A DNA stretch of 64,000 nt from a phage. Below the pieces are notes generated by a model. The model saw only the letters and a list, made by a program, of their open reading frames with translations. It did no database searches and was not told the DNA's origin. The translations under genes and the position numbers were made by a program. The stretch lies in sequence record OR896157.1, one strand, 5' to 3'. This document shows positions 40,505 through 61,173 of this stretch, one piece after another. Every line of letters starts with the position of its first letter. Position 1 is the stretch's first letter.

Positions 40505-40508
40505 TAAA

Positions 40509-40522
40509 GGGCCTTCGGGCCC
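40509..40522 (+). other. C(UUCG)G stem-loop gggccuucgggccc
   Basis: perfect hairpin after wac. Confidence 0.5.
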
Positions 40523-40534
40523 TTAGAGGTTTAT

Positions 40535-41473
40535 ATGGCCGCAAATACCGCACGCAATCCAAAAGAATTAAAAGATGTTATTTTGCGTCGTCTTGGCGCA
40601 CCAATCATTAACGTTGAATTAACCGAAGATATGATTTATGATTGTATCCAACGAGCTTTAGAGCTATTCGGTGAATATCATTATGACGGCTTAAATAAAG
40701 GCTATCAAGTAATTCATATTGGCGATGACGAAATCGGTCGTGGTCAATTCAAAAATGGTGTGTTTGATTTTTCAGACCGCAACATTTTCGCAGTCACACA
40801 AATTGTTCGTACTAACGTTGGTTCACTGACAAGTATGGACGGTAATGCTACTTATCCATGGTTCACTGATTTCCTATTAGGAATGGCTGGAATTAATGGC
40901 GGTATGGGTAGCTCTTGTAATAAAGCTTATGGACCAAATGCATTTGGAGCTGATCTTGGCTATTTCACTCAGCTCACAACTTATTGGTCAATGATGCAAG
41001 ACATGCTCGCTCCATTACCAGACTTTTGGTTCAACGATGCTACCGGCCAGCTTAAAATTATGGGCAACTTCCAGTTAGGCGATGTAATTGTAGTTGAATG
41101 CTGGACTAAATCTTATATTGACGTGGACAAAATGGTTGGAAATAAAGCTGGATATGGAACAGCAGGCCCAGAAACATCTTGGGCTCTTCCTGATGTGTAT
41201 GATAATCCAGATAAGCGTTTGACTGGTTACAGGGCTGGTGAAGAACTTTCAATTGTTCAAGGCTCTTATAACAATCGTTGGGTAAAAGATTATGCTCATA
41301 TTCTGGCAAAAGAATTACTTGGTCAAGTATTAGCTCGTCACCAAGGCATGCAGCTTCCAGGTGGTGTCACATTAAATGGTGAACGTTTAATTGAAGAAGC
41401 TCGATTAGAAAAAGAATATGCTTTAGAACAGCTTTACTTACTTGACCCTCCAACAGGAGTACTTGTAGGATGA
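40535..41473 (+). CDS. 13: gp13 neck protein
   Basis: 312 aa, synteny. Confidence 0.8.
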
Positions 41474-42270
41474 TGAATAAAAATTTGTTCGCGAAGCTCG
41501 AGAACAAATCAGGTTATTCACGCACTAATGAAGAGGAAGTTCTCAATCCATATGTGAACTTCCACAATCATTTTAACACCCAAGCTCTGTTTGATACTCT
41601 TGTGGCTGAAAGTATTCAAATGCGTGGGGTTAAATGTTACTATGTTCCGCGTGAATATGTAAAACCTGACTACGTCTTTGGTGAAGACCTTCAGTCCAAG
41701 TTCACTAAAGCTTGGCAATTTGCAGCTTACATTAACTCATTTGAGGGTTATGAAGGAGCAAATACATTTTATAGCAAGTTCGGAATGCAGGTTAATGATG
41801 AAGTTACTTTGTCAATTAACCCAGGTCTCTTTAAGCATCAAGTAAATGGGCAAGAACCTAAGGAAGGAGACTTAATTTACTTTCCGATGGACAACAGCTT
41901 GTTTGAAATTTCTTGGGTAGAGCCGTATGACCCATTCTATCAAGCTGGACGAAATGCTATTCGTAAGATTACAGCAGAAAAATTCATTTACTCTGGCGAG
42001 CAGCTTAAACCTGAGCTTCAGCGTAATGATGGAATTAACATTCCTGAATTCAGTGAGCTTGATTTAGACCCTATTCATGAATTAGATGGTCTTTCTGATA
42101 TCAATGAAGTTCCGTATCAAGAAGTAGACCAAATGAATGATGAAGCTGATAAAGACGTTAAGCAATATGAAGTCGTTAATGGTACCGGTTCACCCAAGGT
42201 AGAACCACCAAGAAACAGACCACCTGCTAACCATGTAGCATCTCCATTTGATGATGGTTTTATGCTATAA
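41470..42270 (+). CDS. 14: gp14 neck protein
   Basis: 266 aa, synteny. Confidence 0.8.
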
Positions 42271-42274
42271 ATAG
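42267..42274 (+). promoter_or_regulatory. late promoter TATAAATA for gene 15
   Basis: exact motif. Confidence 0.55.
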
Positions 42275-42315
42275 TTAAAAGCATATACGGCTCTTCGGAG
42301 CCGTTAGGAGAAACA

Positions 42316-43145
42316 ATGTTCGGATATTTTTATAACTCGTCTTTGCGCAGATACATCCTAATGCTGGGTGACTTGTTCTCCAATATTCAAGTTCAGAGAG
42401 TGCGCGAAGACATAGGCAAGACATATATCAGAGTTCCAATTACTTATGCTTCTAAAGAACATTTTATGATGAAGCTGAATAAATGGACTTCTGTTAATAA
42501 TGAAGATGGTCCTGCGAAAGTAGAGACAATTCTTCCGCGTATCAACCTTCATTTAGTTGATATGATGTACAACCCAACTTATAAGACTGGACAACTTAAT
42601 CGTTCAGCAATGAGCAATCCTAATTCGAAGACTGGGACTATTTCTCAATACAACCCAACTCCGATTAAAATGATTTTTGAGCTTGGAATTTTTACTCGTC
42701 ACCAGGACGATATGTTTCAAATTGTAGAGCAAATTATGCCCTACTTCCAACCTCATTTTAACACCACAATGACTGAACTATTCGAAAACGAAATTACATT
42801 TGAAAGAGATATAAGAATAACTTTCCAATCTATTTCAATTGACGAACAAATCGATGGAGACAAACAATCTAGAAGAAGATTAGAATGGTCCATCATGTTT
42901 GAAGTGAATGGTTGGCTTTACCCTCCAGCTTTCGATTTAAGTGGTGAAATCCGTACAATTTATCTTGATTTCCATGCTAACAGTCGTGAATTGGTAAATG
43001 AAGGTGTATTTGAATCTGTGGATTCTGAAGTAGACCCGCGCGATGTTGAAATTGAAGATTGGGACGGAAAATCTATTCAGAAATATGACAGCGATTCAAC
43101 TCCAATTCCAAAAGAGCCTGAACCGCCTGGGCCACGAGGTGTATA

Positions 43146-43146
<1 letters not shown>
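42316..43146 (+). CDS. 15: gp15 tail sheath stabiliser / terminator
   Basis: 276 aa, synteny. Confidence 0.8.
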
Positions 43147-45462
<2,316 letters not shown>

Positions 45463-45492
45463 TACTAAAGCACACATGTAGAGGAATTCTTA

Positions 45493-47475
45493 ATGGCTTT
45501 ATTATCTCCGGGCGTTGAGCTCAAAGAAACTAGTGTACAAAGCACTATTGTTAATAATGCTACTGGGCGTGCGGCCCTGGCTGGTAAATTCCAGTGGGGT
45601 CCGGTTGGTCAAGTTGTTCAAGTGACTAACGAAGTCGAATTAGTCGATATTTTCGGCACTCCAGATAGCGAAACTGCTGATTACTTTATGTCAGCAATGA
45701 ACTTCCTGCAATATGGCAATGATCTTCGTATTTCTCGTGCAGTAAATCGCGAAGTAGCTAAAAACTCATCTCCAATTGCTGGGAACGTTGAAATTACCAT
45801 TTCTGCTGCGGGTTCAAACTATGCTGTAGGCGATACCGTTCGAGTTAAATACAACGTAAACGTTATTGAATCAGCTGGTAAAGTTACTGCGGTTGATGGT
45901 AACGGTGGTATTGTTTCAGTTTCAGTACCAAGCGCAAAAATTATTGCATACGCAAAATCAATTAATCAATACCCTGGCCTTGGAGCAAACTGGACTGCTG
46001 AAGTTACTTCTGCATCTTCTGGCGTAGCTGCAACTCTGACTGTTGGAAAAATTGTAACTGATTCTGGTGTTCTTTTAACTGAGCCAGAAACTGCTACTGA
46101 GCAAATGACTTCGGTCGAATTCCAAGCTGCTTTGAAAACTTATGGCATGCCAGGTGTCGCTGCTCTTTATCCGGGTGAACTTGGTTCTCAATTAGAACTT
46201 GAAATTGTCTCTAAAGCTGGATTTGAACAGGGCGCTGCTACACAGCTTCCAATTTACCCTGCTGGCGGAACTCGTGTTTCTACTGCTCGTGCAGTATTTG
46301 GATACGGTCCTCAGTCAGATGACCAATATTGCATTATCGTTCGTCGTGACGGAGCAATTGTAGAAAGCTTTGTTCTTTCAACTAAACGCGGTTCTAAGGA
46401 CGTTTACGGAAATAACATCTTCATTGATGATTTCTTCTCTAAGGGTTCAAGCAATTATATCTTCGCTACTGCTGAAGGCTGGCCAACTGGATTCTCCGGT
46501 ATTGTTCAGTTGTCCGGTGGTGTATCTGCAAACGAATCAGTTACAGCTGGTGATGTAATGCAGGCATGGGATTTATTTGCTGACCGTGAAGCTCTGCATG
46601 TTAATCTCTTGATTGCAGGTGCATGTGCTGGTGAAGATGACGAATTTGCATCTACTGTTCAAAAACACGTAGTATCAATTGCTGATGAACGGCAAGACTG
46701 TCTGGCTCTTATTTCTCCTCCACGTAGTGTGTTGGTAAATATTCCTCTGACTCGTGCAATTGATAACTTAGTCGATTGGCGTACAGGTACTGGAACTTAT
46801 GCAGATGCAAATATGAACATCAGTTCTACTTACGCATCTATTGACGGTAACTACAAATATCAGTATGACAAATACAATGATGTTAACCGTTGGGTTCCGT
46901 TAGCTGCTGATATGGCTGGTCTGTGTGCTCGTACTGATAATGTCAGTCAACCTTGGATGTCTCCAGCTGGTTATAACCGTGGACAGATTCTGAACGTCAT
47001 TAAATTGGCAATCGAACCTCGTCAGAGCCAACGTGACCGTCTGTATCAGGAAGCAATTAACCCTGTTACTGGCACCGGTGGTGACGGATTCGTTCTGTTC
47101 GGCGATAAGACTGCAACCAAAGTTCCTACTCCGTTTGACCGCATCAACGTACGTCGTCTGTTCAACATGCTGAAAACGAATATTGGAAACGCTTCTAAAT
47201 ATCGTCTGTTCGAGATGAACGACAACTTCACTCGTTCAAGCTTCCGTATGGAAACTTCTCAGTACCTGTCTGGAATTAAATCTCTGGGTGGTGTATATGA
47301 ATTCCGTGTGGTATGTGATACTACGAACAACACGCCTGCTGTAATCGACCGCAATGAGTTTGTTGCGTCGTTCTACATCAAGCCAGCTCGTTCTATCAAC
47401 TACATCACTCTGAACTTCGTTGCTACTGCTACGGGTGCTGATTTCGATGAACTGATTGGACCACAAGCTCAATAA
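45493..47475 (+). CDS. 18: tail sheath protein
   Basis: 660 aa, synteny. Confidence 0.9.
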   Translation: MALLSPGVELKETSVQSTIVNNATGRAALAGKFQWGPVGQVVQVTNEVELVDIFGTPDSETADYFMSAMNFLQYGNDLRISRAVNREVAKNSSPIAGNVEITISAAGSNYAVGDTVRVKYNVNVIESAGKVTAVDGNGGIVSVSVPSAKIIAYAKSINQYPGLGANWTAEVTSASSGVAATLTVGKIVTDSGVLLTEPETATEQMTSVEFQAALKTYGMPGVAALYPGELGSQLELEIVSKAGFEQGAATQLPIYPAGGTRVSTARAVFGYGPQSDDQYCIIVRRDGAIVESFVLSTKRGSKDVYGNNIFIDDFFSKGSSNYIFATAEGWPTGFSGIVQLSGGVSANESVTAGDVMQAWDLFADREALHVNLLIAGACAGEDDEFASTVQKHVVSIADERQDCLALISPPRSVLVNIPLTRAIDNLVDWRTGTGTYADANMNISSTYASIDGNYKYQYDKYNDVNRWVPLAADMAGLCARTDNVSQPWMSPAGYNRGQILNVIKLAIEPRQSQRDRLYQEAINPVTGTGGDGFVLFGDKTATKVPTPFDRINVRRLFNMLKTNIGNASKYRLFEMNDNFTRSSFRMETSQYLSGIKSLGGVYEFRVVCDTTNNTPAVIDRNEFVASFYIKPARSINYITLNFVATATGADFDELIGPQAQ

Positions 47476-47569
47476 TTCTAAGACACTTAGGGACCTTCGA
47501 GAGGAGGTCCATAAATACAATCATCTTAGGAAAACTAATTCATCTCGGCCGTTCTGGTGAATCAGAACG

Positions 47570-47577
47570 GTATAAAT
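47570..47577 (+). promoter_or_regulatory. late promoter TATAAATA for gene 19
   Basis: exact motif. Confidence 0.6.
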
Positions 47578-47593
47578 ATAACAGGAACTCACA

Positions 47594-48085
47594 ATGGAAT
47601 TAACAGATCTCACGAGAGCATTCGAATCCGGTGATTTCGCGCGTCCTAACTTGTTTGAGGTAGAAATTCCTTATCTCGGTAAGAACTTCAGCTTCAAATG
47701 TAAAGCAGCTCCACTGCCTGCTGGTATCGTTGAAAAAATTCCGGTCGGTTATATGAACCGTAAACTTAACGTTGCCGGTGACCGTACATTCGACGATTGG
47801 ACCGTGACTATCTATAACGATGATGCTCATAATACTCGTCAAGCTATTGTTGAATGGCAGGGTATCGCAGCAGGTCAGGGTAATGAAATTACTGGTGGCT
47901 CGCCTGCAGAGTATAAGAAAAAAGCAATTGTCCGTCAATTCGCACGTGATAGTAAAACAATTACTCGTGAAATTGAAATTACGGGCGTTTGGCCAACTAA
48001 CGTTGGTGAAGTCCAGCTCGACTGGGATTCAAACAACGAAGTTGAGACCTTTGAAGTAACATTCTGTCTCGACTGGTGGTTGTAA
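47594..48085 (+). CDS. 19: tail tube protein
   Basis: 163 aa, synteny. Confidence 0.9.
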   Translation: MELTDLTRAFESGDFARPNLFEVEIPYLGKNFSFKCKAAPLPAGIVEKIPVGYMNRKLNVAGDRTFDDWTVTIYNDDAHNTRQAIVEWQGIAAGQGNEITGGSPAEYKKKAIVRQFARDSKTITREIEITGVWPTNVGEVQLDWDSNNEVETFEVTFCLDWWL

Positions 48086-48090
48086 AATGT

Positions 48091-48104
48091 GGGCCTTCGG
48101 GCCC
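48091..48104 (+). other. C(UUCG)G stem-loop gggccuucgggccc
   Basis: perfect hairpin after gene 19. Confidence 0.5.
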
Positions 48105-48105
48105 A

Positions 48106-48113
48106 TATAAATA
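48106..48113 (+). promoter_or_regulatory. late promoter TATAAATA for gene 20
   Basis: exact motif. Confidence 0.6.
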
Positions 48114-48133
48114 TTAGTATGCTTTAACCCTTA

Positions 48134-49714
48134 TTGGAGACTCTAATGAAATTTGACGTCTTAAGTTTGTTCGCGCCGTGGGCCAAAGTCGACGAACAGG
48201 AATACGACCAGCAGCTAAATAATAATTTAGAGTCTATCACGGCCCCTAAATTTGATGACGGCGCGACAGAGATTGAATCGGAACGTGGAGACATTGCAGG
48301 CGCTGGATTATTCCAGAGAATGTACGGTCAAAATGAACCGGGAATGAAAAACACCAGGGAGCTTATCGATACTTACCGTCAGTTAATGAATAACTACGAA
48401 GTAGATAACGCTGTCCAAGAAATCGTCTTAGATGCAATTGTATACGAAGATGATCATCCAGTTGTTTCATTGGATTTAGATAACACTGATTTTAGCCAGG
48501 CGATTAAAGACCGTTTACAAGAAGAATTTAACGAAGTTCTTACTTGTCTGAATTTTGAAAGAAAGGGTCTTGACCATTTCCGTCGCTGGTATGTCGATTC
48601 TCGTATCTTCTTCCATAAAATTATTAACCCTAAAAAACCGAAAGAAGGTATTCAAGAGCTTCGTCGTTTAGACCCTCGCAATATTCAGTTCGTTCGTGAA
48701 GTTATCACTGACACTGAAGCGGGCGTGAAAATTGTTAAAGGCTACAAAGAATATTTCGTTTATAACACCGGTCACGAGTCTTATCAATGTGACGGTCGAA
48801 TTTACGACGCTGGAACGAAAATTAAAATTCCAAAGGCTGCAGTTGTTTATGCACACTCTGGATTAGTTGATTGTTCAGGAAGAAACATCATCGGTTATTT
48901 GCACCGAGCTGTTAAACCTGCTAACCAGCTTAAACTGCTTGAAGACGCAATGGTGATTTATCGTATTACACGTGCGCCAGACCGTCGAGTATTTTACATT
49001 GACACAGGGAACATGCCTTCCCGTAAAGCTGCTGCTCATATGCAACACATCATGAACACCATGAAAAACCGTGTGGTATATGATGCGTCTACTGGTAAAA
49101 TTAAAAACCAGCAGCACAATATGTCAATGACAGAAGATTATTGGTTACAGCGCCGCGATGGTAAAGCTGTTACTGAAATTGATAATATGCCTGGTGCTTC
49201 AGGCATGAACGAAATGGACGATGTCCGTTGGTTCAAGAACAACCTTTACCAAGCATTACGTGTTCCACTGTCTCGTATCCCGAATGACCAACAAAGTGGA
49301 GTTCAGTTTGATGCTGGAACTGGAATTACACGTGACGAGTTACAATTTGCTAAATTCATTCGTGAACTGCAGCATAAGTTTGAAGAAATTTTCCTCGACC
49401 CTCTTAAAACAAACCTTATTTTGAAAGGCGTAATGAGCGAAGATGATTGGAAAGATGAAATAAATAACATTAAGATAGTATTTCATCGTGACAGTTACTT
49501 CACTGAACTTAAAGATGCTGAAGTCACTGAACGCAGATTCAATATGCTTCAAATGGCCGAACCGTTTATCGGTAAGTATATTTCTCATCAGACTGCAATG
49601 AAGACTATTCTTCAAATGACTGATGAACAAATTGACCAAGAGGCTAAGCAAATTGAGCTAGAGTCTAAAGAGGCTCGTTTCCAAGACCCAGACCAAGAAC
49701 AAGAGGATTTCTAA
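48134..49714 (+). CDS. 20: portal vertex protein
   Basis: 526 aa, synteny. Confidence 0.9.
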
Positions 49715-49962
49715 TGGAAGATTTCATCTCCGCACTCAAATCCAACGACCTCGTTAAAGCTAAGAAAGCCTTTGGTGCTATTATGCTTGAACAGACCGCT
49801 GATTTGATTAGCCAACGTCGTGTTGAGATTGCCCAATCTATTATGATTGAAGGCGAAGAAAAAGAAGACGACGAAGACGAGAATGATGATTCTGAAGATG
49901 AAGGTAAAGAAAAACCTGAATCTAAAGATGAAAAAGATTCTGAAGACGAAGACGAAGAATAA
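49714..49962 (+). CDS. 67: prohead core protein gp67
   Basis: 82 aa with acidic C-terminus. Confidence 0.75.
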   Translation: MEDFISALKSNDLVKAKKAFGAIMLEQTADLISQRRVEIAQSIMIEGEEKEDDEDENDDSEDEGKEKPESKDEKDSEDEDEE

Positions 49963-49971
49963 GGAGTCGCA

Positions 49972-50397
49972 ATGCTGATTGTTCCTGATGAGTACGAAGT
50001 CGTACTTGAAAACATCGAAGCAGCTATTCCTGAAGCCGAATCTCGTTTTAAGCAGTTGTCAGAAGCTCTCGATAAAGCAGACATAAATACAATTGTAGAA
50101 AACATGTTGCCAATTGAACCTGAAGTAGCAATTGCTATGGGTTCACTGAATGAAGAAATGCAGCTCAATGAATTTATCGTTAAGCATGTTTCTTCTCGTG
50201 GAGAAATTACGCGTACTAAAGACCGTAAAACCCGCGAGCGCCAAGCATTCCAAACAACTGGTTTATCTAAAGCTAAACGTCGCGCTATCGCTCGAAAAGT
50301 CGTTAAGTCCAAACGCGCTAATCCGTCTGGTACTGTACGAGGCAACCGCAAACGTAAGAAAGCTATGAAACGTCGTCAGGCGTTAGGATTAAGCTAA
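49972..50397 (+). CDS. 68: prohead core protein gp68
   Basis: 141 aa, basic C-terminus. Confidence 0.75.
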
Positions 50398-51038
50398 TGA
50401 ATGAACCCCAATTACTCATTGAGCATTGGGGTCAACCCGGCGAAATTTTGAATGGCGTACCGATGCTTGAGTCATACGATGGCTCAGATGCAGGGCTAAA
50501 ACCTGGATTATACATCGAAGGCGTGTTCATGCAAGCCGAAGTAGTTAACCGAAACAAGCGTCTTTATCCAAAGAGAGTATTGGAAAAAGCCGTAGCTAAT
50601 TATATTAAAGAGCAGGTTTCTACTAAACAAGCACTTGGAGAATTAAATCACCCACCACGTGCTAACGTTGACCCGATGCAAGCCGCAATCATCATCGAAG
50701 ATATGTGGTGGAAAGGAAACGATGTTTATGGACGAGCTCGTATTATTGAAGGTGACCATGGTCCTGGAGATAAACTCGCTGCAAACATTCGTGCTGGCTG
50801 GATTCCTGGAGTATCTAGTCGTGGACTAGGCTCATTAACGGAAACCAATAAAGGCTACCGTATCGTAAACGAAGGATTTAAACTCACCGTTGGCGTTGAT
50901 GCTGTGTGGGGACCTTCTGCACCAGATGCTTGGGTAACTCCGAAGCAGATTTCGGAATCCGCTGAGGCGCAAGTCGCCAAAAAGAATGACGATGAGTCAT
51001 TTAAAGCTCTCGTAGAGAGTCTCGAAAAAGCATTATAA
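50397..51038 (+). CDS. 21: prohead core protein / protease gp21
   Basis: [12 protein letters not shown]...NHPPRANVDPMQAAIIIEDMWW very close to T4 gp21. Confidence 0.9.
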   Translation: MNEPQLLIEHWGQPGEILNGVPMLESYDGSDAGLKPGLYIEGVFMQAEVVNRNKRLYPKRVLEKAVANYIKEQVSTKQALGELNHPPRANVDPMQAAIIIEDMWWKGNDVYGRARIIEGDHGPGDKLAANIRAGWIPGVSSRGLGSLTETNKGYRIVNEGFKLTVGVDAVWGPSAPDAWVTPKQISESAEAQVAKKNDDESFKALVESLEKAL

Positions 51039-51041
51039 ATA
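51034..51041 (+). promoter_or_regulatory. late promoter TATAAATA for gene 22
   Basis: exact motif overlapping gene 21 stop. Confidence 0.55.
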
Positions 51042-51071
51042 ATAATGTAACTTAACAACAGGACTAACAAA

Positions 51072-51887
51072 ATGCTGAAAGACATCCTGCTCCAGGAAGC
51101 TCAGAATATTGAAGCTACCGTAGCTGTGGACAGTATTTTCGAATCGGTCGAGCTTTCTCCGGAAGTAAAAGCGAAGTTCGAAACTGTATTCGAAGCAACT
51201 GTAAAGAAACATGCCGTTGAATTGGCTGAATCCCACATTACCAAAATTGCTGAAATGGCTGACGAAAAGCTGAAAGACGCTAAAGAAGAAGCCGAAGAAA
51301 AAGCTGAAAAGAAACTGACCGAACATGCTTCACGTTTCTTCAATCACATCGCTCAAGAATGGATGAACGAAAACAAACTGGCTGTTGATAAAGGCATCAA
51401 AGCTGAACTGTTTGAATCCATGTTCGCTGGTATGAAAGAACTGTTCGTTGAACACAACGTTGTTCTGCCAGAAGAATCAGTTGATGTAGTTGCTGAAATG
51501 GAAGAAGAACTGGCTGAAGCTCGTGAAGAAATCAGCAATCTGTTCGAAGGTATTTCTGCTCGCGACGAAAAAATTAATACCATGCTGCGTGAAAGCGCTG
51601 TAATGGAATCAACTAAAGACTTGACCGACGTTCAGAAAGAGAAAGTAGCTTCTCTGACCGAAGGTATGGAATATTCCGACGAATTCTCAAGTAAGCTGTC
51701 TGCCATCGTCGAAATGGTTAAAGGCTCCGTCGAGAAAGAGGTAGTAAATGAAAGCATAAATACTACCGACAATGATGCTGACGGTCTCAACTTCATTACT
51801 GAAGAACACATTGAGCCAGAAGAAAAAGTATCAAAACAGCCATCGATGATGGACGCATACGTAGCCTCTGCGGCACGTCTTTCTTAA
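51072..51887 (+). CDS. 22: prohead scaffold protein gp22
   Basis: 271 aa, Glu/Lys-rich helical. Confidence 0.85.
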   Translation: MLKDILLQEAQNIEATVAVDSIFESVELSPEVKAKFETVFEATVKKHAVELAESHITKIAEMADEKLKDAKEEAEEKAEKKLTEHASRFFNHIAQEWMNENKLAVDKGIKAELFESMFAGMKELFVEHNVVLPEESVDVVAEMEEELAEAREEISNLFEGISARDEKINTMLRESAVMESTKDLTDVQKEKVASLTEGMEYSDEFSSKLSAIVEMVKGSVEKEVVNESINTTDNDADGLNFITEEHIEPEEKVSKQPSMMDAYVASAARLS

Positions 51888-51909
51888 TTTTTAAAAGGTT
51901 ATAAAACAC

Positions 51910-53472
51910 ATGAAAAAGATTAATCCGTTAGTAGAAAAATGGACTCCGCTGCTTGAGAACGAAGCACTGCCTGAAATCGTTGGTGCTGGTAAAAAAGCTC
52001 TGATTGCAAAAATCATGGAAAACCAGGAATCAGCTATTAAAACTGAACCTGCATTCCGTGATGAAAAAATCGCTGAAGCATTTGGTTCGTTCCTGACTGA
52101 AGCAGAAATTGGTGGTGACCACGGTTATGATGCTCAAAACATCGCTGCTGGCCAGACATCAGGCGCAGTAACTCAGATTGGACCAGCTGTTATGGGCATG
52201 GTACGTCGTGCAATTCCTAACCTGATTGCTTTCGACATCTGCGGTGTTCAGCCAATGAGTTCTCCAACCGGACAGGTATTCGCTCTGCGTGCTGTTTACG
52301 GTAAAGACCCTCTGGCCGCTGGTGCTAAAGAAGCATTCCACCCAATGTACGCTCCAGATGCAATGTTCTCTGGTCAGGGTGCTGCTCAGAAATTCGCTCC
52401 TGTAAAAGCTGCTGACGTTCTGACTGTTGGTACTATCGTAGTTCACGATTTCGCTGACGTTGGTCGCGCTTACTTCCAGGTTGCTGAAGGTTTCACCGTA
52501 GACGCTGGTGCTACCGATGCTGAAAAACTGGATAAAGCAGTTAAAGCTGCTGAAGAAGCTGGTCAGCTGGTAGAAATCGCTGAAGGTATGGCTACCTCCG
52601 TAGCTGAACTGCAGGAAAACTTCAACGGTTCTACTGATAACCCATGGAATGAAATGGGCTTCCGTATCGATAAGCAAGTTATCGAAGCTAAATCTCGTCA
52701 GCTGAAAGCTCAGTACTCTATTGAACTGGCTCAAGACTTACGTGCTGTTCATGGTATGGACGCGGATGCTGAACTGTCTGGTATTCTGGCTACCGAAATC
52801 ATGCTGGAAATCAACCGTGAAGTTGTAGACTGGATTAACTACTCTGCGCAACTGGGTAAAACCGGTATGACTCAGACCGTTGGTTCTAAAGCTGGTGTAT
52901 TTGACTTCCAGGACCCAGTAGATATTCGTGGCGCTCGTTGGGCAGGTGAAAGCTTCAAAGCTCTTCTGTTCCAAATCGATAAAGAAGCTGCTGAAATCGC
53001 ACGTCAGACTGGTCGTGGTGCTGGTAACTTCATCATCGCTTCTCGTAACGTAGTTAACGCTCTGGCAGCTGTTGACACTGGCGTTACTCCTGCTGCTCAG
53101 GGTCTGGGTCAAGGCTTCAATGCTGATACCACTAAGACTGTGTTCGCAGGTATTCTGGGCGGTCGTTATAAAGTATACATCGACCAGTACGCTCGTCAGG
53201 ACTACTTCACCATTGGTTACAAAGGTGCTAACGAGATGGATGCTGGTATCTACTACGCTCCATACGTTGCTCTGACTCCACTGCGTGGTTCCGACCCGAA
53301 AAACTTCCAGCCGGTCATGGGGTTCAAAACCCGTTACGGTATTGGTATCAACCCGTTTGCTGATAGTGCATCACAGCAGCCGAATGCTCGCATTCAGTCT
53401 GGTATGCCTTCTATCGTCAACTCCGTTGGTAAGAACGCGTACTTCCGTCGCATCTGGGTTAAAGGTCTGTAA
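51910..53472 (+). CDS. 23: major capsid protein gp23
   Basis: near-identical blocks to T4 gp23 (IGGDHGY, QIGPAVMGMVRRAIPNLIAFDICGVQPM, DPKNFQPVMGFKTRYGIGINPFA). Confidence 0.95.
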   Translation: MKKINPLVEKWTPLLENEALPEIVGAGKKALIAKIMENQESAIKTEPAFRDEKIAEAFGSFLTEAEIGGDHGYDAQNIAAGQTSGAVTQIGPAVMGMVRRAIPNLIAFDICGVQPMSSPTGQVFALRAVYGKDPLAAGAKEAFHPMYAPDAMFSGQGAAQKFAPVKAADVLTVGTIVVHDFADVGRAYFQVAEGFTVDAGATDAEKLDKAVKAAEEAGQLVEIAEGMATSVAELQENFNGSTDNPWNEMGFRIDKQVIEAKSRQLKAQYSIELAQDLRAVHGMDADAELSGILATEIMLEINREVVDWINYSAQLGKTGMTQTVGSKAGVFDFQDPVDIRGARWAGESFKALLFQIDKEAAEIARQTGRGAGNFIIASRNVVNALAAVDTGVTPAAQGLGQGFNADTTKTVFAGILGGRYKVYIDQYARQDYFTIGYKGANEMDAGIYYAPYVALTPLRGSDPKNFQPVMGFKTRYGIGINPFADSASQQPNARIQSGMPSIVNSVGKNAYFRRIWVKGL

Positions 53473-53483
53473 TCCAATTAAAT

Positions 53484-53501
53484 GGGAGCCGCAAGGCTCC
53501 C
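53484..53501 (+). terminator. hairpin gggagcc-gcaa-ggcuccc plus U-rich tail
   Basis: after gene 23. Confidence 0.5.
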
Positions 53502-53557
53502 ATTGTTGTTTCTACGGATGATAAATAAAAGTATAATCCACTAGAGGAAAAGCGACG

Positions 53558-54841
53558 ATGGCTAACATCCATGACCTTCTGCGCGAATCAACTACAACGA
53601 CGAGTTCAATTTCTGCCCGTCCTAGCCTCGTTGCATTGACTCGCGCTACTACTAAATTAATTTACTCTGATATTGTAGCTACTCAGCGTACTACTCAACC
53701 TACTGCTGCTTTCTATGGTATCAAATACTTGAACCCTAACAAAGAATTAACGTTCCTTACTGGTGCTACCTACGCAGGTCAAACTGGTACTGAGGACCGT
53801 AAGTCTATTGAAACATTAACTGCTTCAAATAAAGATTCATTTGGCAAGGGCGATTTATTCAAATACAATGACATTGTTTACAAAGTACTTGTAGATAATC
53901 CATTTGACCAGATTACTGAAACTGATTTAGAAGTTGTAATTCAGATTTCTCTGGTTAAACTCACTACTCGTTTAATGTCTGATGCTGCTATCACTTCCAA
54001 GTTTGAAACTGCTGGAGCTGATATCGCTGAAGCTAAATTCCAAATTGATAAATGGCAGACTCAGGTTAAATCTCGTAAACTTAAAACGAGTTTGACTGTT
54101 GAATTGGCCCAGGACCTTGAAGCTAACGGCTTTGATGCTTCTAATTTTATCGATGATTTACTGGCTACTGAAATGGCCGATGAAATTAACAAAGACATTT
54201 TACAAAGTCTTGTGACAGTTTCAAAACGATATAAAGTTGAAGGTATCACAGATACTGGATTCATCGATTTATCTTATGCATCTGCTCCAGAAGCTGGTCG
54301 TTCTCTGTATCGCATGGTATGCGAAATGGTTTCTCATATTCAGCGTTCAACATCCTTTACTGCAACGTTTGCTGTAGCATCTACTCGTGCTGCTGCTGTT
54401 CTTGCTGCATCAGGTTGGTTGAAGCACCAAGCTGGTGACGATGAATATCTGTCAGAGAATGCCTATGGTTTCCTGGCGAATGGTTTGCCTCTGTATTGCG
54501 ATACTAACACTCCACTTGATTATGTAATTGTCGGTGTAGTAGAAGATATTGGTGATAAAGAAGTTGTATCGAGTATTTTCTATGCTCCATACACTGAAGG
54601 TATCGACCTTGATGACCCGGAACATGTTGGTGCATTTAAAGTAATTGTTGACCCAGAAAGCTTACAGCCTTCTGTAGCTTTACTCGTTCGTTATGCACTG
54701 TCTGCTAACCCGTATACTGTAGCTAAAGATGAAAAGGAAGCTCGAATCATTGATGGCGGGGATATGGATAAGATGGCAGGACGTTCTGATTTATCAGTTC
54801 TTCTTGGTGTTAAGTTACCAAAAATCATCATTGAAGACTAA
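53558..54841 (+). CDS. 24: head vertex protein gp24
   Basis: 427 aa, gp23 paralogue-like. Confidence 0.9.
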   Translation: MANIHDLLRESTTTTSSISARPSLVALTRATTKLIYSDIVATQRTTQPTAAFYGIKYLNPNKELTFLTGATYAGQTGTEDRKSIETLTASNKDSFGKGDLFKYNDIVYKVLVDNPFDQITETDLEVVIQISLVKLTTRLMSDAAITSKFETAGADIAEAKFQIDKWQTQVKSRKLKTSLTVELAQDLEANGFDASNFIDDLLATEMADEINKDILQSLVTVSKRYKVEGITDTGFIDLSYASAPEAGRSLYRMVCEMVSHIQRSTSFTATFAVASTRAAAVLAASGWLKHQAGDDEYLSENAYGFLANGLPLYCDTNTPLDYVIVGVVEDIGDKEVVSSIFYAPYTEGIDLDDPEHVGAFKVIVDPESLQPSVALLVRYALSANPYTVAKDEKEARIIDGGDMDKMAGRSDLSVLLGVKLPKIIIED

Positions 54842-54844
54842 AAG

Positions 54845-54870
54845 AAAGGGAACCTCACGGTTCCCTTTTG
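54845..54870. terminator. bidirectional hairpin aagggaacc-ucac-gguucccuu
   Basis: between convergent gene 24 and ORF 54874..55419. Confidence 0.5.
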
Positions 54871-54873
54871 TAG

Positions 54874-55419
54874 TTATAAAGCAAATATATCGAATGTTGG
54901 CGCGTACTTGTCTTTGAATCTCTGATAGATTTCCTTTTCATACAGATTGTAGCAAGGTATCCCATGACGCTTAGCTATATCAACGGCCACTCGTGTCCCT
55001 CCAGTAACGCTAGAGAGTTTTATTGGAGCATAGAATAGTACCATATCCACGGGTGACTGGCAGTCCTCTCCGAGCACCTGAAGTGCATTGCGGGCAAATA
55101 AAGTCTTCACTATATCCCGGCACTCATCCCAGTAACTTGTCACTTCTCTTACTTTAATTACACTCCTGATTCTCACTTCATTTGGAAAATCTTTCCACAC
55201 CTTTACTCCAACTCCGGTTTTAAGACCATTGAAGCCTTCGTATGGTATGATACGTAATGAACGCTCACGGTCGTATCTACTGAGCCATGATTCATCTGCA
55301 CCAGGAGCTCCTCCCGAATACGAAAAATGGCCCGACTCCGAAAGAGCCTGACCAGTTAATGACATGACATCTAAAACACGACGTGGCGTCTCTCGAGAAC
55401 CGATTAACGCCAAACGCAT
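54874..55419 (-). CDS. DprA/Smf-like (SLOG-type Rossmann) protein, tentative
   Basis: LIGSRETP...SGGAPGADE resembles DprA-family nucleotide-binding motif. Confidence 0.35.
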   Translation of the reverse strand: MRLALIGSRETPRRVLDVMSLTGQALSESGHFSYSGGAPGADESWLSRYDRERSLRIIPYEGFNGLKTGVGVKVWKDFPNEVRIRSVIKVREVTSYWDECRDIVKTLFARNALQVLGEDCQSPVDMVLFYAPIKLSSVTGGTRVAVDIAKRHGIPCYNLYEKEIYQRFKDKYAPTFDIFAL

Positions 55420-56423
55420 TAGTTACTTACCAGTTCAATCCAAACTGGACGAATTACGCCTTGCACGTAATTGACAAGTTCTTTCTTGACTACATCAGGA
55501 TTGTCTGCATCGGTAATGAAGATTTCTTCACGACCAGCTTCTTCCAGAATGTCCTGGACAGTAAGACCCATAACTTTGCCAAAGTCTTTTGGACCAACTT
55601 GACCAATCTTACTGATAACGTTATTGACTCGGTTCAGAGTAGCATAAGCTGCCAGGGTGGAGAAAGTTACCTTATCAACATCAGTCAGTTCAACCTTAGC
55701 TTTAATAGGCTTATCGGATTTAGCTTTCTCAGAGAACTTGGAGTTCTTGCATTTAATAGCTACACGAGAACCGTTAGGGAAGAATTTAGGGTAGCATGGT
55801 TTCAGAACGTAGCCTTCGGCAACATTTTCATTTGATACTACAGCATCGTATGTTGCGGTATTAGCAATTTCCAAACCTGCATCTCTTACAATATCATTAT
55901 AATAATTTACAACTACGGATAAATCGTTTGGAATTTTAGCAAGGTCATCGAATTTACCACGACCCAGTAATGGAGCCATTTTAAACCCAAAAACATTACA
56001 CATGCGTTCCATCATGAAATCATCGACATAAGACGATTCACCGGATTCGGTAGTCACTTTAATATCAAAGACATAGAAGTCTTTTTCACCGTAATCAACA
56101 CCTTTCTGAATTCCGCCACCAGCAAATTCACCAAAGATTTGATAAGCTACAGTAGCACCAGTCAGTGCAGCTTGAACAGCTTTAAATGACTCGTTATAGC
56201 GACCCATGATAACCATATAGCCAAAGAAGTCTTCTGCTGGCAGAATAGGACCAGTACGCTTGGCAGGCTGAATTGAATCTTTAGTTACGATAACAGAGAA
56301 GTTAGTGCCGTGAATTTTCTCACGCGCTACCCAAGTTTCAGAGACATCAAAACCAGCATTACGAATACGCTCAATGAATTTACCGTTGTAGTGGTTCTCG
56401 AGCGTTGAATATTTCTCAAACAT
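55419..56423 (-). CDS. rnlB: RNA ligase 2
   Basis: 334 aa; [12 protein letters not shown] (KxHGxN), [26 protein letters not shown] very close to T4 Rnl2. Confidence 0.95.
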
Positions 56424-56431
56424 ATTTCACC

Positions 56432-56689
56432 TTAGAATTTAATTTTGAAAGACTGACCTTGATAGTCAGCATTGAACTCATATGAGAAGCCATTTTTAGA
56501 AAAGAATACTTTCATAGCTTCTACATTATTGCTCCATTTTTCTGGAACAATATAAAACGTTTCAAACTTACCACGTTGTGCTGCGTTCCGCAGGTTATCT
56601 TTAATATGAGCTTTAATATCTTCTGGTAGTTCATCACGCACACCCTGTGCCAATGCTCTGTATTCTTGAGCTAGACTCATTATAATCAC
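56432..56689 (-). CDS. hypothetical protein
   Basis: 85-aa ORF. Confidence 0.45.
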   Translation of the reverse strand: MIIMSLAQEYRALAQGVRDELPEDIKAHIKDNLRNAAQRGKFETFYIVPEKWSNNVEAMKVFFSKNGFSYEFNADYQGQSFKIKF

Positions 56690-56794
56690 CGTATAAATAT
56701 CAATAATTAGGGAGGGTTCTATCCTTCTATGGTCAAGCGTATGTACTAGAAAGAATCCGTGAAACCATTATACCACGCGGATTCTTTAAGCATA

Positions 56795-57148
56795 TTATAG
56801 AGGGATTACTTTATACTTCTTATTGCCACGAGCATCACGCTTACAAACTAATTTGCACTTCGTACCGCTTGCGATAGTGTAGTCTTCATCAACCTTCATC
56901 CGCATCCAGTCTAATACCATTCCAGATGGGTTAAAAGATTTTTCAACTTCAACCATAATCTTCGTTCCAGATTTATAGAACTTCGATTCTTGTTGTACAT
57001 GGTCAGCCAATGCTCGAGAAAATGCAGACGGACTCAGGAATTTGTTATAACCATGAGCTGCAGCTACAAATGTGTTATCTAATGCATGCTGAATGTTTTT
57101 GATAACTACCTTAGAATATCCAAGGTGTTTTTCAGGATACTGATTCAT
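56795..57148 (-). CDS. hypothetical protein
   Basis: 117-aa ORF. Confidence 0.45.
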   Translation of the reverse strand: MNQYPEKHLGYSKVVIKNIQHALDNTFVAAAHGYNKFLSPSAFSRALADHVQQESKFYKSGTKIMVEVEKSFNPSGMVLDWMRMKVDEDYTIASGTKCKLVCKRDARGNKKYKVIPL

Positions 57149-57374
57149 TAAATCCCCTCATATGTTTTACGAGTTGTTGATGACGAGATTCTACATCAGT
57201 ATTAGATAAGCGTTTACGATAGACGATGATTTCTCTTCGTTTAACTCGTGACCGAGCGGCTTCAACCTTTGCGTAATGCAGTGCAGCTTCTTCTGGCTTA
57301 ATGCCAGCTTCTCGAGCGATTTCAATAAAGCTCATGCCGTTTTCATGCTTAAAATGAATCTCAATCGGTGTCAT
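57132..57374 (-). CDS. hypothetical protein
   Basis: 80-aa ORF. Confidence 0.4.
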   Translation of the reverse strand: MTPIEIHFKHENGMSFIEIAREAGIKPEEAALHYAKVEAARSRVKRREIIVYRKRLSNTDVESRHQQLVKHMRGFNESVS

Positions 57375-57427
57375 TACTTTATCCTACAGTGAAAGTTGTT
57401 GGTATAATACCACTCTCTAGAAAAAGC

Positions 57428-57451
57428 AAAAGGAGCCCGAAGGCTCCTTTT
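57428..57451 (-). terminator. hairpin aaaaggagcc-uucg-ggcuccuuuu
   Basis: 10-bp stem with UUCG loop and flanking A/U runs, downstream of hoc. Confidence 0.55.
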
Positions 57452-58853
57452 AATAGATGATGCCAGCTTCTAAAGCTGAACGATGAACAATACGTCCATT
57501 CCGTGATTCTTGCACATCAACTTCTGGATAATCATCTAGCATTTTAGCTAGTGTATATCGGTGCAAGTAATAATCGCTGTCGGTGTCATCAAGTTTCCAA
57601 TCTTTTCCTGCGACAGTCATTTCTTGGATTTCATCCATGACCCACCAACCACACCAGATATAGGCTGTTCCTCGGAATGGCAGAGGATGAATATACGGAA
57701 GTTCTCCATCAGGGGCAGGAGCTACCCTTTTAGTAATAGTTACATCACCAGTTGTAGTGACTGTAACAGGAGTGTAATCTTCTGCGGAAACATCAACAGA
57801 AACACCAATCACTTGGGACCCTATATCAGACGTGTCAATCACTAAAGTGCTAGTAGAACCTTCTACAGGAGAACCATCTTTAGTCCAAGAATAAACCCCA
57901 GTTGCACCTTCAGGAGCACCGATAACATTGGCTTTAAAAGACGCCTCAGACCCCTGCTCGGTCGTAATAGACTCAGGAGTCAAAGTAACTGAAACCCCGC
58001 TCATGGTCTTTTTGGTAATCGTTACATTACCGGTTTTAGTAACTGTAACGGGTTTATAATCTGGAGCAGAAACAACAGCAGAAACCTCAATTGCCTGCGA
58101 CCCGATAGTGGATGTATCAATTTCTAGCGTACTTGTTGAGCCTTCTATAGGAGAACCGTCTTTGGCCCATGAGTAAGCTACAGATGCTCCCGCCGGCGCT
58201 CCAGTAACATCGGCTTTAAAAGATGCTTCTGCTCCCTTTTCAGCGGTAATTGAACTAGGCGTCAGAGTAACAGAAACACCACTCATGGTCTTTTTAGTGA
58301 TGGTTACGCTAGCACCTTTGCTTACAGTCACTGGATTGTAATCTGGTGCAGAAACTGTTGCTTCACAATTCAGAGTATAATTAGCCTCTGCTGACTCAGT
58401 TATGGTAATCGTTTTAGCAGTCTGACCTTCAATAACGACAGTACCACGCTTCCAAACATAAGCAATGCTTGCACCTTCTGGAGCACCAACAACGTTAGCC
58501 GTAACTACCTGAGACTGGCCAATTTCTTTAGAAACAGAAGTCGGGCTCAAAGTTAAAGTAATCGCAGGCATAGTTTTGTTCTGAACTGTAAGAGTGGTTT
58601 CTGCCTCAGCAGTTTCTGCCTCACCCTCTGCTGGGGTAACAGTAGCAACTACTTTAACAGTCTTACTGCCGGCAGGTCCTGCAGCAACATAATTCATAGC
58701 TGCGGTGACAGAAGATTGTTTTACGCCATTTACTGTCCATACAAACGTTTCTGTGCCTTCAGCTGCGGCTCCAGAAGTTGTTGCAGTAAAATTGGTTGTT
58801 GCTCCAATGACTGCCGAAGCAGCCAAAGGAGCAATAGATACGCTATAAGCCAT
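57450..58853 (-). CDS. hoc: Hoc-like outer capsid protein with tandem Ig-like domains
   Basis: repeated ~90-aa Ig-like units (KKTMSGVSVTLTP...) and C-terminal capsid-binding-like domain; position between rnlB and uvsW. Confidence 0.75.
   Translation of the reverse strand: MAYSVSIAPLAASAVIGATTNFTATTSGAAAEGTETFVWTVNGVKQSSVTAAMNYVAAGPAGSKTVKVVATVTPAEGEAETAEAETTLTVQNKTMPAITLTLSPTSVSKEIGQSQVVTANVVGAPEGASIAYVWKRGTVVIEGQTAKTITITESAEANYTLNCEATVSAPDYNPVTVSKGASVTITKKTMSGVSVTLTPSSITAEKGAEASFKADVTGAPAGASVAYSWAKDGSPIEGSTSTLEIDTSTIGSQAIEVSAVVSAPDYKPVTVTKTGNVTITKKTMSGVSVTLTPESITTEQGSEASFKANVIGAPEGATGVYSWTKDGSPVEGSTSTLVIDTSDIGSQVIGVSVDVSAEDYTPVTVTTTGDVTITKRVAPAPDGELPYIHPLPFRGTAYIWCGWWVMDEIQEMTVAGKDWKLDDTDSDYYLHRYTLAKMLDDYPEVDVQESRNGRIVHRSALEAGIIY
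57740..58300 (-). repeat. two tandem near-identical ~273-bp repeat units inside hoc
   Basis: DNA units beginning actcatggtcttttt... repeated; they encode the duplicated Ig-like domains. Confidence 0.6.
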
Positions 58854-58862
58854 AGGTGTTCC

Positions 58863-59618
58863 TTATTTTAAAGTTACAAATGAAGAATTACGTGTTTCAC
58901 GAATCATAACAGACCCGTTTCTTTTGATGTAATAAATTAAACTGAACAGTGTCTGGTGTGCTGATGGGTGTCCAAACGATGTTGGACGAGATTTCCAATC
59001 AGGATTGTCTTTAATCCATTGGTAAATCCACCAAGGAAGAGTAACATATCCTGGATTCTTACCTAACAATTGGGTGTTTGGACTAAAGTTTTCAGGAAGT
59101 TCAACAATTTCTTCATTGTTAATAATTTTAACAGCCTTATCCATTTCTTCATTAAACTTTTCTTGGGTGATTGCAGTCACTGGAATAGTATGAACTTTAT
59201 CATCTGCAACTGTAATCACGGAATCACCGATTGGGGCTTCAAGAATAACGCCTTTAACCGGGTCCATTGGCTTACCAAAATGAGGGTCGATATCAGTTAC
59301 TTTCACTTGTGGCGCATCAGAAGATACAGAATCAATCAATAGACGAGCTTCTTCTTTAGCCTCATCTTTAAAAATAGCAGTGCCTTTGGCCTCGTCGTCA
59401 GCTTGAATAAGGTCATAGATTGAAAGACCGTCATTCTGCTCTGGCATGGGTTCATTAGCAAGTTTGGCCAATTCGACTTCAAGGTCAGCGACCATATTGT
59501 CAAAGGCTTTAGTTTTCTTCAGCTTGATGCCGAAGGTTTCAGCGTACTCGGCAAGCTTTTCTTTGGCTTCTTTTTTCTCAAGTGCACCGATTTCAGCAAT
59601 ATAATCTTTATCTAACAT
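58863..59618 (-). CDS. inh: Inh-like protein (inhibitor of prohead protease), by position
   Basis: start taken at MLDKDYIAEI; lies between hoc and uvsW as in T4. Confidence 0.45.
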   Translation of the reverse strand: MLDKDYIAEIGALEKKEAKEKLAEYAETFGIKLKKTKAFDNMVADLEVELAKLANEPMPEQNDGLSIYDLIQADDEAKGTAIFKDEAKEEARLLIDSVSSDAPQVKVTDIDPHFGKPMDPVKGVILEAPIGDSVITVADDKVHTIPVTAITQEKFNEEMDKAVKIINNEEIVELPENFSPNTQLLGKNPGYVTLPWWIYQWIKDNPDWKSRPTSFGHPSAHQTLFSLIYYIKRNGSVMIRETRNSSFVTLK

Positions 59619-59633
59619 AGTAGCCTCGTTGTG

Positions 59634-59641
59634 TATAAATA
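59634..59641 (+). promoter_or_regulatory. late promoter TATAAATA for uvsW
   Basis: exact motif; a second TATAAATA on minus strand at 59648-59655 faces inh. Confidence 0.55.
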
Positions 59642-59670
59642 TAAATGTATTTATAACTAAGGAATCGGCA

Positions 59671-61173
59671 ATGCACGATATCAATGTAAAATTTCATGAT
59701 TTTAGTCATGTGTTTATTGAGTGTGATGAATCCACATTCCATGAACTAAGAGACTATTTTAGTTTTGAAGCTGATGGCTACAAATTCAATCCAAAGTATC
59801 GTTATGGACATTGGGATGGACGTATTCGTCTTCTGAACTATGACCGTCTGTTACCGTTCGGCCTAGTCGGACAAATCCGTAAATTCGCAAATAGCATGGG
59901 TTATTCAGTTTACTTCGAACCGAAGATTTTTGAGACTGAAGAAATAACTCGCAAAGATTTTGATGACTGGCTTGGTAATCTCAATATTTACTCTGGGAGT
60001 AAAAAGATTGAGCCTCACTGGTATCAGAAAGATGCTGTGTTTGAAGGGTTAGTGAATCGTCGTCGAATTTTGAACCTTCCAACATCTGCTGGTAAATCTT
60101 TAATCCAATGCTTACTTGCGCGTTATTATGTTGAGAACTATGAAGGTAAAATTTTAATCATCGTTCCAACAACAGCATTAGTTGACCAGATGATTAATGA
60201 CTTCTGTGATTATCGTCTGTTTGGCAAACAACATTGTCTTGGTATTCGCTCAGGTACAAAGCGCGATTCAGATGCAATGATTTATGTTGCCACCTGGCAG
60301 ACAGCCGTTAAACAACCAAAAGAATGGTTTCACCAATTCGGCATGATGATGAATGACGAATGTCATCTGGCTACTGGCAAATCTATTTCAACTATCGTTG
60401 CTGGTTTAAATAATTGCATGTTTAAGTTCGGCTTGTCTGGTTCATTAAAAGACGGCAAAGCTAACGTGATGCAGTATGTTGGAATGTTCGGTGAAATTTT
60501 CCGTCCAGTTTCAACATCTCAGCTCATGGAAGATGGTCAAGTAACTGACTTAAAAATTAACTCAATCTTCCTTCGTTACCCAGACGAATTCACCACTAAA
60601 ATGAAAGGTAAAACTTACCAAGAAGAAATCAAGGTAATTACCAGCGCAAAACGTCGTAACAAATGGGTAGCTAATTTAGCTGTAAAACTGGCCAAAAGAA
60701 ATGAAAACGCGTTCTTGATGTTCAAACATGTTGCTCATGGTAAAGAGCTGTTTGAAATGATTAAAGAACTTGGACATGAGAAGGTGTATTACGTTTCAGG
60801 CGAAGTATCAACTGAAGTTCGTAACGCATTGAAGGTAATGGCTGAAAACGGTACGGGGATTATTGTAGTTGCATCTTACGGTGTATTCTCTACTGGTATT
60901 TCCGTTAAGAATCTTCACCATGTTATTTTAGCTCATCCAGTTAAGTCTAAAATTATCGTTCTGCAGACTATCGGTCGTGTACTTCGTAAGCATGATTCTA
61001 AATCAATTGCTACAGTATGGGATATCATCGATGATATGGGTGTTAAACCAAAATCAGCAAATGCCAAGAAGAAATACGTTCATTTGAACTATGCTTTAAA
61101 GCACGCGCTGGAGCGCATTCAGAGATATGCAGACGAAAAATTCAATTACGTAATGAAACAAATCGATATTTGA
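59671..61173 (+). CDS. uvsW: UvsW helicase
   Basis: start at MHDINVKFHDF; near-identical blocks to T4 UvsW (RRILNLPTSAGKS, MMNDECH, TIGRVLR). Confidence 0.95.
   Translation: MHDINVKFHDFSHVFIECDESTFHELRDYFSFEADGYKFNPKYRYGHWDGRIRLLNYDRLLPFGLVGQIRKFANSMGYSVYFEPKIFETEEITRKDFDDWLGNLNIYSGSKKIEPHWYQKDAVFEGLVNRRRILNLPTSAGKSLIQCLLARYYVENYEGKILIIVPTTALVDQMINDFCDYRLFGKQHCLGIRSGTKRDSDAMIYVATWQTAVKQPKEWFHQFGMMMNDECHLATGKSISTIVAGLNNCMFKFGLSGSLKDGKANVMQYVGMFGEIFRPVSTSQLMEDGQVTDLKINSIFLRYPDEFTTKMKGKTYQEEIKVITSAKRRNKWVANLAVKLAKRNENAFLMFKHVAHGKELFEMIKELGHEKVYYVSGEVSTEVRNALKVMAENGTGIIVVASYGVFSTGISVKNLHHVILAHPVKSKIIVLQTIGRVLRKHDSKSIATVWDIIDDMGVKPKSANAKKKYVHLNYALKHALERIQRYADEKFNYVMKQIDI

Follow-up and report, generated by a model that had tools for sequence, protein, structure and literature searches.

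The hoc gene found at positions 57450-58853 (minus strand) of a 64,000-nucleotide (nt) stretch of phage DNA (sequence record OR896157.1; hereafter the window, to which all positions refer) encodes an outer-capsid decoration protein with four immunoglobulin (Ig)-like domains, whereas T4 Hoc has three. Very probably, this is an ordinary functional hoc whose four-Ig form goes back to an old duplication and whose Ig array came into a Karamvirus from a Jiaodavirus-like phage. The domain count, the divergence of the repeated units and the mosaic structure were observed directly; judging from the sequence comparisons, the four-Ig array was not made in this genome, but arrived in a Jiaodavirus-like recombinant patch.

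The gene is a single open reading frame (ORF) of 467 amino acids (aa). Its product matches PHROG 1149 ("Hoc-like head decoration") with an E-value of 3.8e-129, and its last 62 residues (406-467) match PHROG 21694 (E 2.9e-37). In a phmmer search of the PDB sequences, T4 Hoc (5vf3_Z, 376 aa) was the sole match (E 7e-150), RB49 Hoc not being retrieved. The protein begins with MAYSVSI, as its homologues do. These matches bear out the identification as hoc, encoding the non-essential outer-capsid decoration protein of T4-like phages, that had been proposed in an earlier, sequence-only reading; the same reading had estimated the gene to be about 90 codons longer than T4 hoc, and the measured difference is 91 codons (467 versus 376 aa).

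The organization of the protein is D1-D2-D3-D4-CT, i.e., four Ig-like domains followed by a C-terminal domain. D1 (aa 1-95; 58569-58853, on the minus strand like all the others) aligns to domain 1 of T4 Hoc and is modelled as a beta-sandwich with a predicted local distance difference test (pLDDT) score of 83-93. D2 (aa 96-190; 58284-58568) is, according to the alignment of the units, a diverged copy of the repeat unit that makes up D3 (aa 191-284; 58002-58283) and D4 (aa 285-378; 57720-58001), the first and the second member, respectively, of a pair of 282-nt repeats; D3 is without counterpart in three-Ig alleles. The capsid-binding domain CT (aa 379-467; 57453-57719), of Karamvirus type, aligns to residues 285-373 of T4 Hoc, the majority of the aligned residues being identical, and contains the PHROG 21694 match. 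In the HMMER alignments, T4 Hoc 1-282 aligns to query residues 1-282 and T4 Hoc 114-373 to residues 209-467; domain 3 of T4 Hoc aligns twice, to residues 191-282 and 285-378, and hence corresponds to both D3 and D4. Pfam matches fall on the same two domains, with I-set on D3 (E 2.3e-9) and Ig_3 on D4 (E 4.8e-8). In a model computed with AlphaFold2 from 31 four-Ig homologues (mean pLDDT 84), four all-beta, beta-sandwich domains are present (pLDDT 83-96). When this model was compared with the PDB using Foldseek, the best matches were four-Ig fragments of DCC, Sidekick and Dscam (E ~1e-13, probability 1.00, ~420 aligned columns); the global template modelling (TM) scores were low (0.17-0.35) because the model is extended and the four-Ig targets are bent, and only the local similarity of the Ig string was taken as evidence. 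The presence of one Ig-like domain more than in T4, already claimed from the sequence, is thus confirmed by the double alignment, by Pfam and by the model.

The same D1-D2-D3-D4-CT organization is present in the 468-aa Hoc of the Jiaodavirus phages PMBT63, Kpn6N, KP185 and AShe-2020a, which shares with the window Hoc 91-95% aa identity (91% in PMBT63), 88-91% nt identity over the whole gene and 93-100% nt identity over the Ig-encoding part; the C-terminal end is ...GIIYP in these proteins and ...GIIY in the window. The Karamvirus Hoc (PG7, SonariX, vB-EclM_KMB19; 373 aa) is encoded in a backbone 97-98% identical to that of the window, at the same place, with inh on one side and the rnlB-side genes on the other, and with a CT that is 98-100% identical in nt. 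It differs from the window Hoc in its three Ig domains (1122 nt), in D1 and D2, which are 73-92% identical to those of the window, and in its third domain, which is a D4/D3/D4 mosaic; the PG7 copy is annotated as split, due to one extra base. T4 Hoc (376 aa; PDB 5vf3, 8t1x) is a clear homologue in which the capsid-binding domain is conserved and whose gene has the same neighbours, but it has three Ig-like domains, the third of which matches D3 and D4 with 57-58% aa identity each. A conserved capsid-binding domain joined to a variable number of Ig-like domains is likewise found, from the published description, in the Hoc of Serratia phage Muldoon (1174 aa, 10 Ig-like domains; PMC10385173), although its array is far larger and the phage is distant.

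The four-Ig architecture, its difference from T4 and the 3/4-Ig (373/468-aa) polymorphism have already been published. Among Jiaodavirus phages, Kpn5N has a Hoc of 373 aa with three Ig domains and Kpn6N one of 468 aa with four, a difference that was put down to a central deletion, the larger form being attributed to a duplication (PMC9960720, 2023). The 468-aa Hoc of PMBT63 has been modelled with four Ig-like domains in a study that reported enhanced retention of the phage on mucin and noted that Hoc proteins vary in domain number (PMC13435897, 2026). The structure of T4 Hoc and its binding to gp23* hexamers, with one monomer bound at each hexamer centre, as well as homologues with up to 10 Ig domains, have also been described (PMC10385173, 2023). 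On the basis of the homology with T4 Hoc, the CT of the window protein would plug into the centre of each major-capsid hexamer, its conservation pointing to one monomer per gp23* hexamer centre, and the Ig string would project as a fibre, adhering weakly to glycans or cell surfaces. Capsid binding, a fibre one domain longer and glycan adhesion are expectations drawn from the work on T4 and PMBT63.

The mosaic structure emerges when the locus is compared with both genera. The region 40000-60000 of the window is 97.9% identical to the Enterobacter phages SonariX, vB_Ecl_id4496 and vB_VIPECLOM01, and 97.2% identical to PG7, the type species of Karamvirus; on sequence identity, the window genome is assigned to Karamvirus, in the group of Enterobacter phage PG7. 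Two phages of Karamvirus type, KaAlpha and VPA32, were isolated on Klebsiella. The hoc gene of this group is the 1122-nt, 373-aa form with three Ig domains. Instead, the best whole-gene DNA matches of the window hoc are those of the Klebsiella phages AShe-2020a (91%) and KP185 (90%), both Jiaodavirus, whose hoc is 1401 nt long. The gene and 1.5 kb on each side of it were aligned with the corresponding loci of two Karamvirus and three Jiaodavirus phages, and identity was computed in sliding windows. The flanks of hoc show an identity of 97-100% with Karamvirus and of 45-85% with Jiaodavirus; from about 58960 to about 57750, the corresponding figures are 73-92% for Karamvirus and 93-100% for one or other Jiaodavirus (AShe-2020a, TNG87, KPV15). 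The best-matching phage changes along this segment, being AShe-2020a over D1 (100%), KPV15 over D2 (95-100%) and AShe-2020a/TNG87 over D3-D4 (94-98%), with D3 itself 94-97% identical to AShe-2020a, TNG87 and M21a. In CT the relationship is reversed, with 98-100% nt identity to SonariX/PG7 and 82-90% to Jiaodavirus. The informative sites, i.e., those at which the two genera consistently differ, form one clean Jiaodavirus-type block with Karamvirus-type sites on either side.

Sliding-window identity and informative sites delimit a Jiaodavirus-like recombinant patch of about 1.25 kb (57715-58980) in the Karamvirus backbone, with breakpoint intervals at 58959-58980, in the 3' end of inh (the gene upstream of hoc), and at 57681-57746, at the D4/CT boundary. 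The patch, which is intact and in frame, contains all four Ig domains and the last ~100-120 nt of inh, whereas CT stays of Karamvirus type. On clustering of the units, the gene possesses D2, D3 and D4 in the order of the Jiaodavirus-type four-Ig variant, in combination with a CT and a genome context that are not of Jiaodavirus type. Among the 120 best homologous protein clusters, four Ig domains are joined to a Karamvirus-type C-terminus only in the window and in a one-residue variant (P0005). No Karamvirus record in the phage collection contains a D3-type unit, the D3 matches found there (82-84%) being to the third domain of those phages. According to the scenario that we favour, the four-Ig array and the last ~100 nt of inh would have come from a Jiaodavirus-like Klebsiella phage through homologous recombination, the ~1.25-kb patch with its complete four-Ig array replacing the native three-Ig array. 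Crossovers in the 3' end of inh and at the D4/CT boundary would leave the native capsid-binding domain in place, which would make sense if CT must fit the resident major capsid protein.

Some observations weigh against this reconstruction. The patch as a whole is matched by no one database phage, so that the donor would be either unsampled or itself a mosaic. Moreover, D1 and CT are 82-92% alike between Karamvirus and Jiaodavirus hoc, above the likeness of the neighbouring genes (45-85%), and this blurs the breakpoints; it also hints that hoc might have been exchanged between the two genera more than once. As for the function, the C-terminal domain is modelled poorly by AlphaFold2 (pLDDT 43-63), and the mucin result obtained with PMBT63 concerns the retention of the whole phage, with no Hoc knockout (PMC13435897).

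A different history would be that the four-Ig form is ancestral in Karamvirus and that the other members lost D3 by deletion between linker repeats, without any transfer between genera. In fact, the three-Ig alleles (SonariX, PG7, KPV15) are short of exactly one 282-nt unit, with a gap that opens at the conserved KKTMSG linker (alignment A1), and a deletion has also been proposed for Kpn5N (PMC9960720). However, a loss of D3 does not account for the Jiaodavirus-like sequence of D1, D2, D4 and the 3' end of inh (93-100%, versus 73-92% to Karamvirus) between flanks that are 97-100% Karamvirus, nor is the third Ig domain of Karamvirus a simple D3-D4 fusion: at the sites that distinguish D3 from D4, in SonariX (L001, 2071-2352) it is D4-like in the 5' half, then D3-like at about nt 140-240 and again D4-like in the last 40 nt, a pattern that suggests gene conversion between units or alleles. 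We consider this history very improbable, and its simplest version, in which D3 was just deleted in Karamvirus, was rejected, since the divergence reaches across D1, D2 and D4.

The patch might also be an assembly chimera, arising if the reads of a co-occurring Jiaodavirus were built into a Karamvirus contig through the conserved parts of hoc; the 82-92% intergenus identity at the edges of the gene is such that assemblers can switch there. Against this, a separate Logan assembly (ERR10682451_826; L006) shares 99.8% identity with the window along 8405 nt, with 14 differences, one of which is in hoc, and is therefore a distinct sequence. It encodes the same 467-aa Hoc with a single P-to-L change (P0005), with the same junctions and the same number of units, and is the sole record of the allele besides the window, the exact window Hoc being absent from the assembly collection. 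This near-identical, independent contig argues that the allele did not arise through an error in a single assembly; the patch being intact and in frame, and its matching no single known Jiaodavirus throughout, also speak against a chimera, to which we give only a slight probability.

Within hoc, a seed-and-extend search found two adjacent direct copies of 282 nt (57728-58009 and 58010-58291) with 74% identity, and a 54-nt core that occurs three times, with spacings of 282 and 285 nt. When hoc was compared with itself in an offset scan, the internal repeat appeared at offset 282, with 73% identity in the best 270-nt window, followed by offsets 567 (51%) and 285 (48%), unrelated offsets giving at most ~43%. 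The adjacent repeat is real and far above background. That reading was right in describing two adjacent units (placed at 57740-58300), but their length is 282 nt (94 codons) rather than ~273 bp, and they are not near-identical in DNA: D3 and D4 share 71% nt identity in the domain register (74% in that of the repeat search) and 73% aa identity, and Tandem Repeats Finder, run on 57000-59300 with a minimum score of 30, reported no repeat, so that the 282-nt repeat was visible only to the seed-and-extend search and to the offset scan. D2 is ~60% identical to D3 and D4 in nt and 39-47% in aa; D1 is ~50% identical in nt to the other units and 20-26% identical in aa to D2-D4. The longest exact run common to D3 and D4 within the units is 12 nt, and the longest common to both inter-domain junctions is the 14-nt AAAAAGACCATGAG, which encodes KKTMS and is located, on the minus strand, at 58282-58295 (D2/D3 junction) and 58000-58013 (D3/D4 junction); the 70-nt region at the D2/D3 junction is 76% identical to that at the D3/D4 junction.

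The comparison of D3 and D4 with the Nei-Gojobori method gave 1.54 synonymous substitutions per site (dS, saturated) and 0.17 nonsynonymous ones (dN). The saturated dS, the 71-74% nt identity and the exact runs of 12-14 nt indicate that the duplication is old. D3 and D4 are 58% and 57% aa identical, respectively, to domain 3 of T4 Hoc and 73% to each other, which dates the duplication to a time after the T4 lineage had branched off; moreover, the D3-D4 aa identity is 70-80% (median 74.5%) in 74 alleles of 467/468 aa, with one exception, so that the two units must have been duplicated before these alleles diversified. The two domains are paralogues that go back to an old tandem duplication of a unit resembling domain 3 of T4 Hoc, and both have been kept under purifying selection since then. 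The "extra" domain has been placed at residues 109-209 (PMC13435897) or interpreted as an N-terminal duplication (PMC9960720). Also D2 (58284-58568) is nearer to domain 3 of T4 Hoc (44% aa identity) than to domain 2 (33%), and D2, D3 and D4 may all derive from a domain-3-like unit.

The view that the duplication was recent, which the sequence-only reading had put forward, i.e., that near-identical DNA repeats arose in situ and that their number is prone to change within the phage population, can draw on the 282-nt direct repeat, on relatives that differ in the number of units and on one allele with two D3-type units 96.8% identical in aa (P0082), but for the window allele it is refuted by the divergence figures given above and is the least probable of all the alternatives, given also the empty Tandem Repeats Finder output, the same diverged D3/D4 pair in ~80 protein clusters and the equal number of units in L006. 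Identity, exact runs and dS are not those of an unstable, near-identical tandem repeat, as in a contingency-type locus.

The number of units does vary among the relatives. The proteins of the 120 best homologous clusters, whose units were typed by clustering, are 373-377 aa (33), 467-472 aa (83) or 563-565 aa (4) long. The most common arrangement is D1-D2-D3-D4-CT, found in 80 clusters including the window (79 others), followed by D1-D2-D4-CT in ~31; four five-Ig proteins are D1-D2-D2'-D3-D4-CT, and single clusters exhibit D1-D2-D3-CT (P0093), D1-D2-D2'-D4-CT (P0079) and D1-D2-D3-D3'-CT (P0082). The last, a protein of 468 aa from an ENA contig of 81,838 nt, reflects a recent duplication of a unit or a conversion of D4 by D3; it is the scenario of the sequence-only reading, in another phage. 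The potential for repeat-number variation noted there is supported in part: 3-, 4- and 5-Ig relatives exist, and the number and content of the units do change in the clade, on an evolutionary time scale; within one phage stock, little heterogeneity would be expected because the exact homologies are only 12-14 nt long.

Two alleles of the relatives deserve mention. The hoc of TNG87 (505 aa) contains a perfect in-frame tandem duplication of 111 nt within D3 (L004, ~2105-2326; A1 columns 605-715), repeating 37 residues of the Ig domain, which either happened very recently or was created by the assembly. The "split" hoc of PG7 (L002, 1501-2623, near 1935) has one extra C with respect to SonariX (GGCCAAACCAGC versus GGCCAAA-CAGC, at about column 435 of A1), which could be a sequencing error or the mark of a pseudogene. 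The "short Hoc" of 233 aa, treated in the literature as a distinct Hoc-like protein of PG7 (PMC10385173), looks like the 3' part of this frameshifted three-Ig gene.

Tentatively, the Ig arrays of Hoc might be regarded as exchangeable cassettes, whole arrays crossing genera while CT stays, and the conserved KKTMSGVSVTLTP linker being the site at which single 282-nt units are added, removed, converted or duplicated. If this were the case, co-circulating Klebsiella and Enterobacter phages would have at their disposal a repertoire of capsid adhesins with differing lengths and specificities, comprising proteins with three, four or five Ig domains, D3-D3' variants and mosaic units, and the window would represent a recent intergenus transfer caught in the act.

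Mosaicism is a familiar feature of T4-like phages. The literature searches yielded no report of Karamvirus phages with a four-Ig allele, nor of the transfer of such a patch between genera. Since the four-Ig form and the polymorphism are published, and the repeat is too diverged for an unstable locus, the finding is mostly confirmatory. In T4-like phages, the principal protein that is exposed on the surface, immunogenic and able to adhere to mucus is Hoc, also a widely used display scaffold; its length and domain content could affect the immunogenicity and the gut retention of therapeutic Klebsiella and Enterobacter phages. The window indicates that a whole Ig array can be exchanged for that of another genus with the capsid anchor kept, a natural precedent for engineering, and cautions that the type of Hoc should not be inferred from the genus.

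The neighbourhood of hoc is that of T4 (uvsW, inh, hoc, small ORFs, rnlB). Upstream, inh (58863-59618, minus strand) encodes the prohead protease inhibitor (PHROG 1051, E 3e-92; Pfam Phage_Inh_N/C on the 251-aa homologue of L006) and is probably co-transcribed with hoc; it is preceded by a divergent gene for a UvsW-type helicase, and small ORFs and RNA ligase 2 lie downstream of hoc. The same gene order, with hoc next to inh and between uvsW and rnlB, is kept in SonariX, PG7, TNG87 and KPV15. A motif scan located the T4-type late-promoter motif TATAAATA upstream of inh-hoc, at 59648-59655 (minus strand), where it is predicted to act as the late promoter of the two genes; the motif has 17 matches in the window versus 4.2 expected. 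A terminator-like hairpin with a T-run (57421-57452, minus strand; the hairpin proper being 57452-57427), formed by an 11-pair stem followed by CTTTTT, lies right after the hoc stop. When the Hoc C-terminal domain, D1 and the D3 units were searched with tblastn against the whole window, no second Hoc-like gene was found; the lipase-fused Hoc-like protein reported as a second one in PG7 (PMC10385173) is therefore absent from these 64 kb.

In the 52-nt gap between the divergent genes inh and uvsW (59619-59670), TATAAATA occurs on both strands (59634-59641, plus; 59648-59655, minus). The listed TTG starts of inh (59684) and uvsW (59629) overlap each other and are probably wrong; the ATG codons at 59618 (inh) and 59671 (uvsW) fit the lengths annotated in relatives, where UvsW has 500 aa and Inh, in L006, 251 aa, and on account of this annotation 59618 was taken as the inh start, inh being annotated as 239 aa in SonariX and PG7. 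Finally, the C-terminal ~60 aa of Inh (58863-59060, minus strand) show a weak likeness to the Hoc capsid-binding domain, with the motifs WW..., DWK and E(S/T)RN; PHROG 1149 matches Inh residues 161-266 (E 2.3e-5), and BLASTP of the Hoc CT against Inh gave an E-value of 0.012. The products of these two adjacent genes may share a capsid-binding module.

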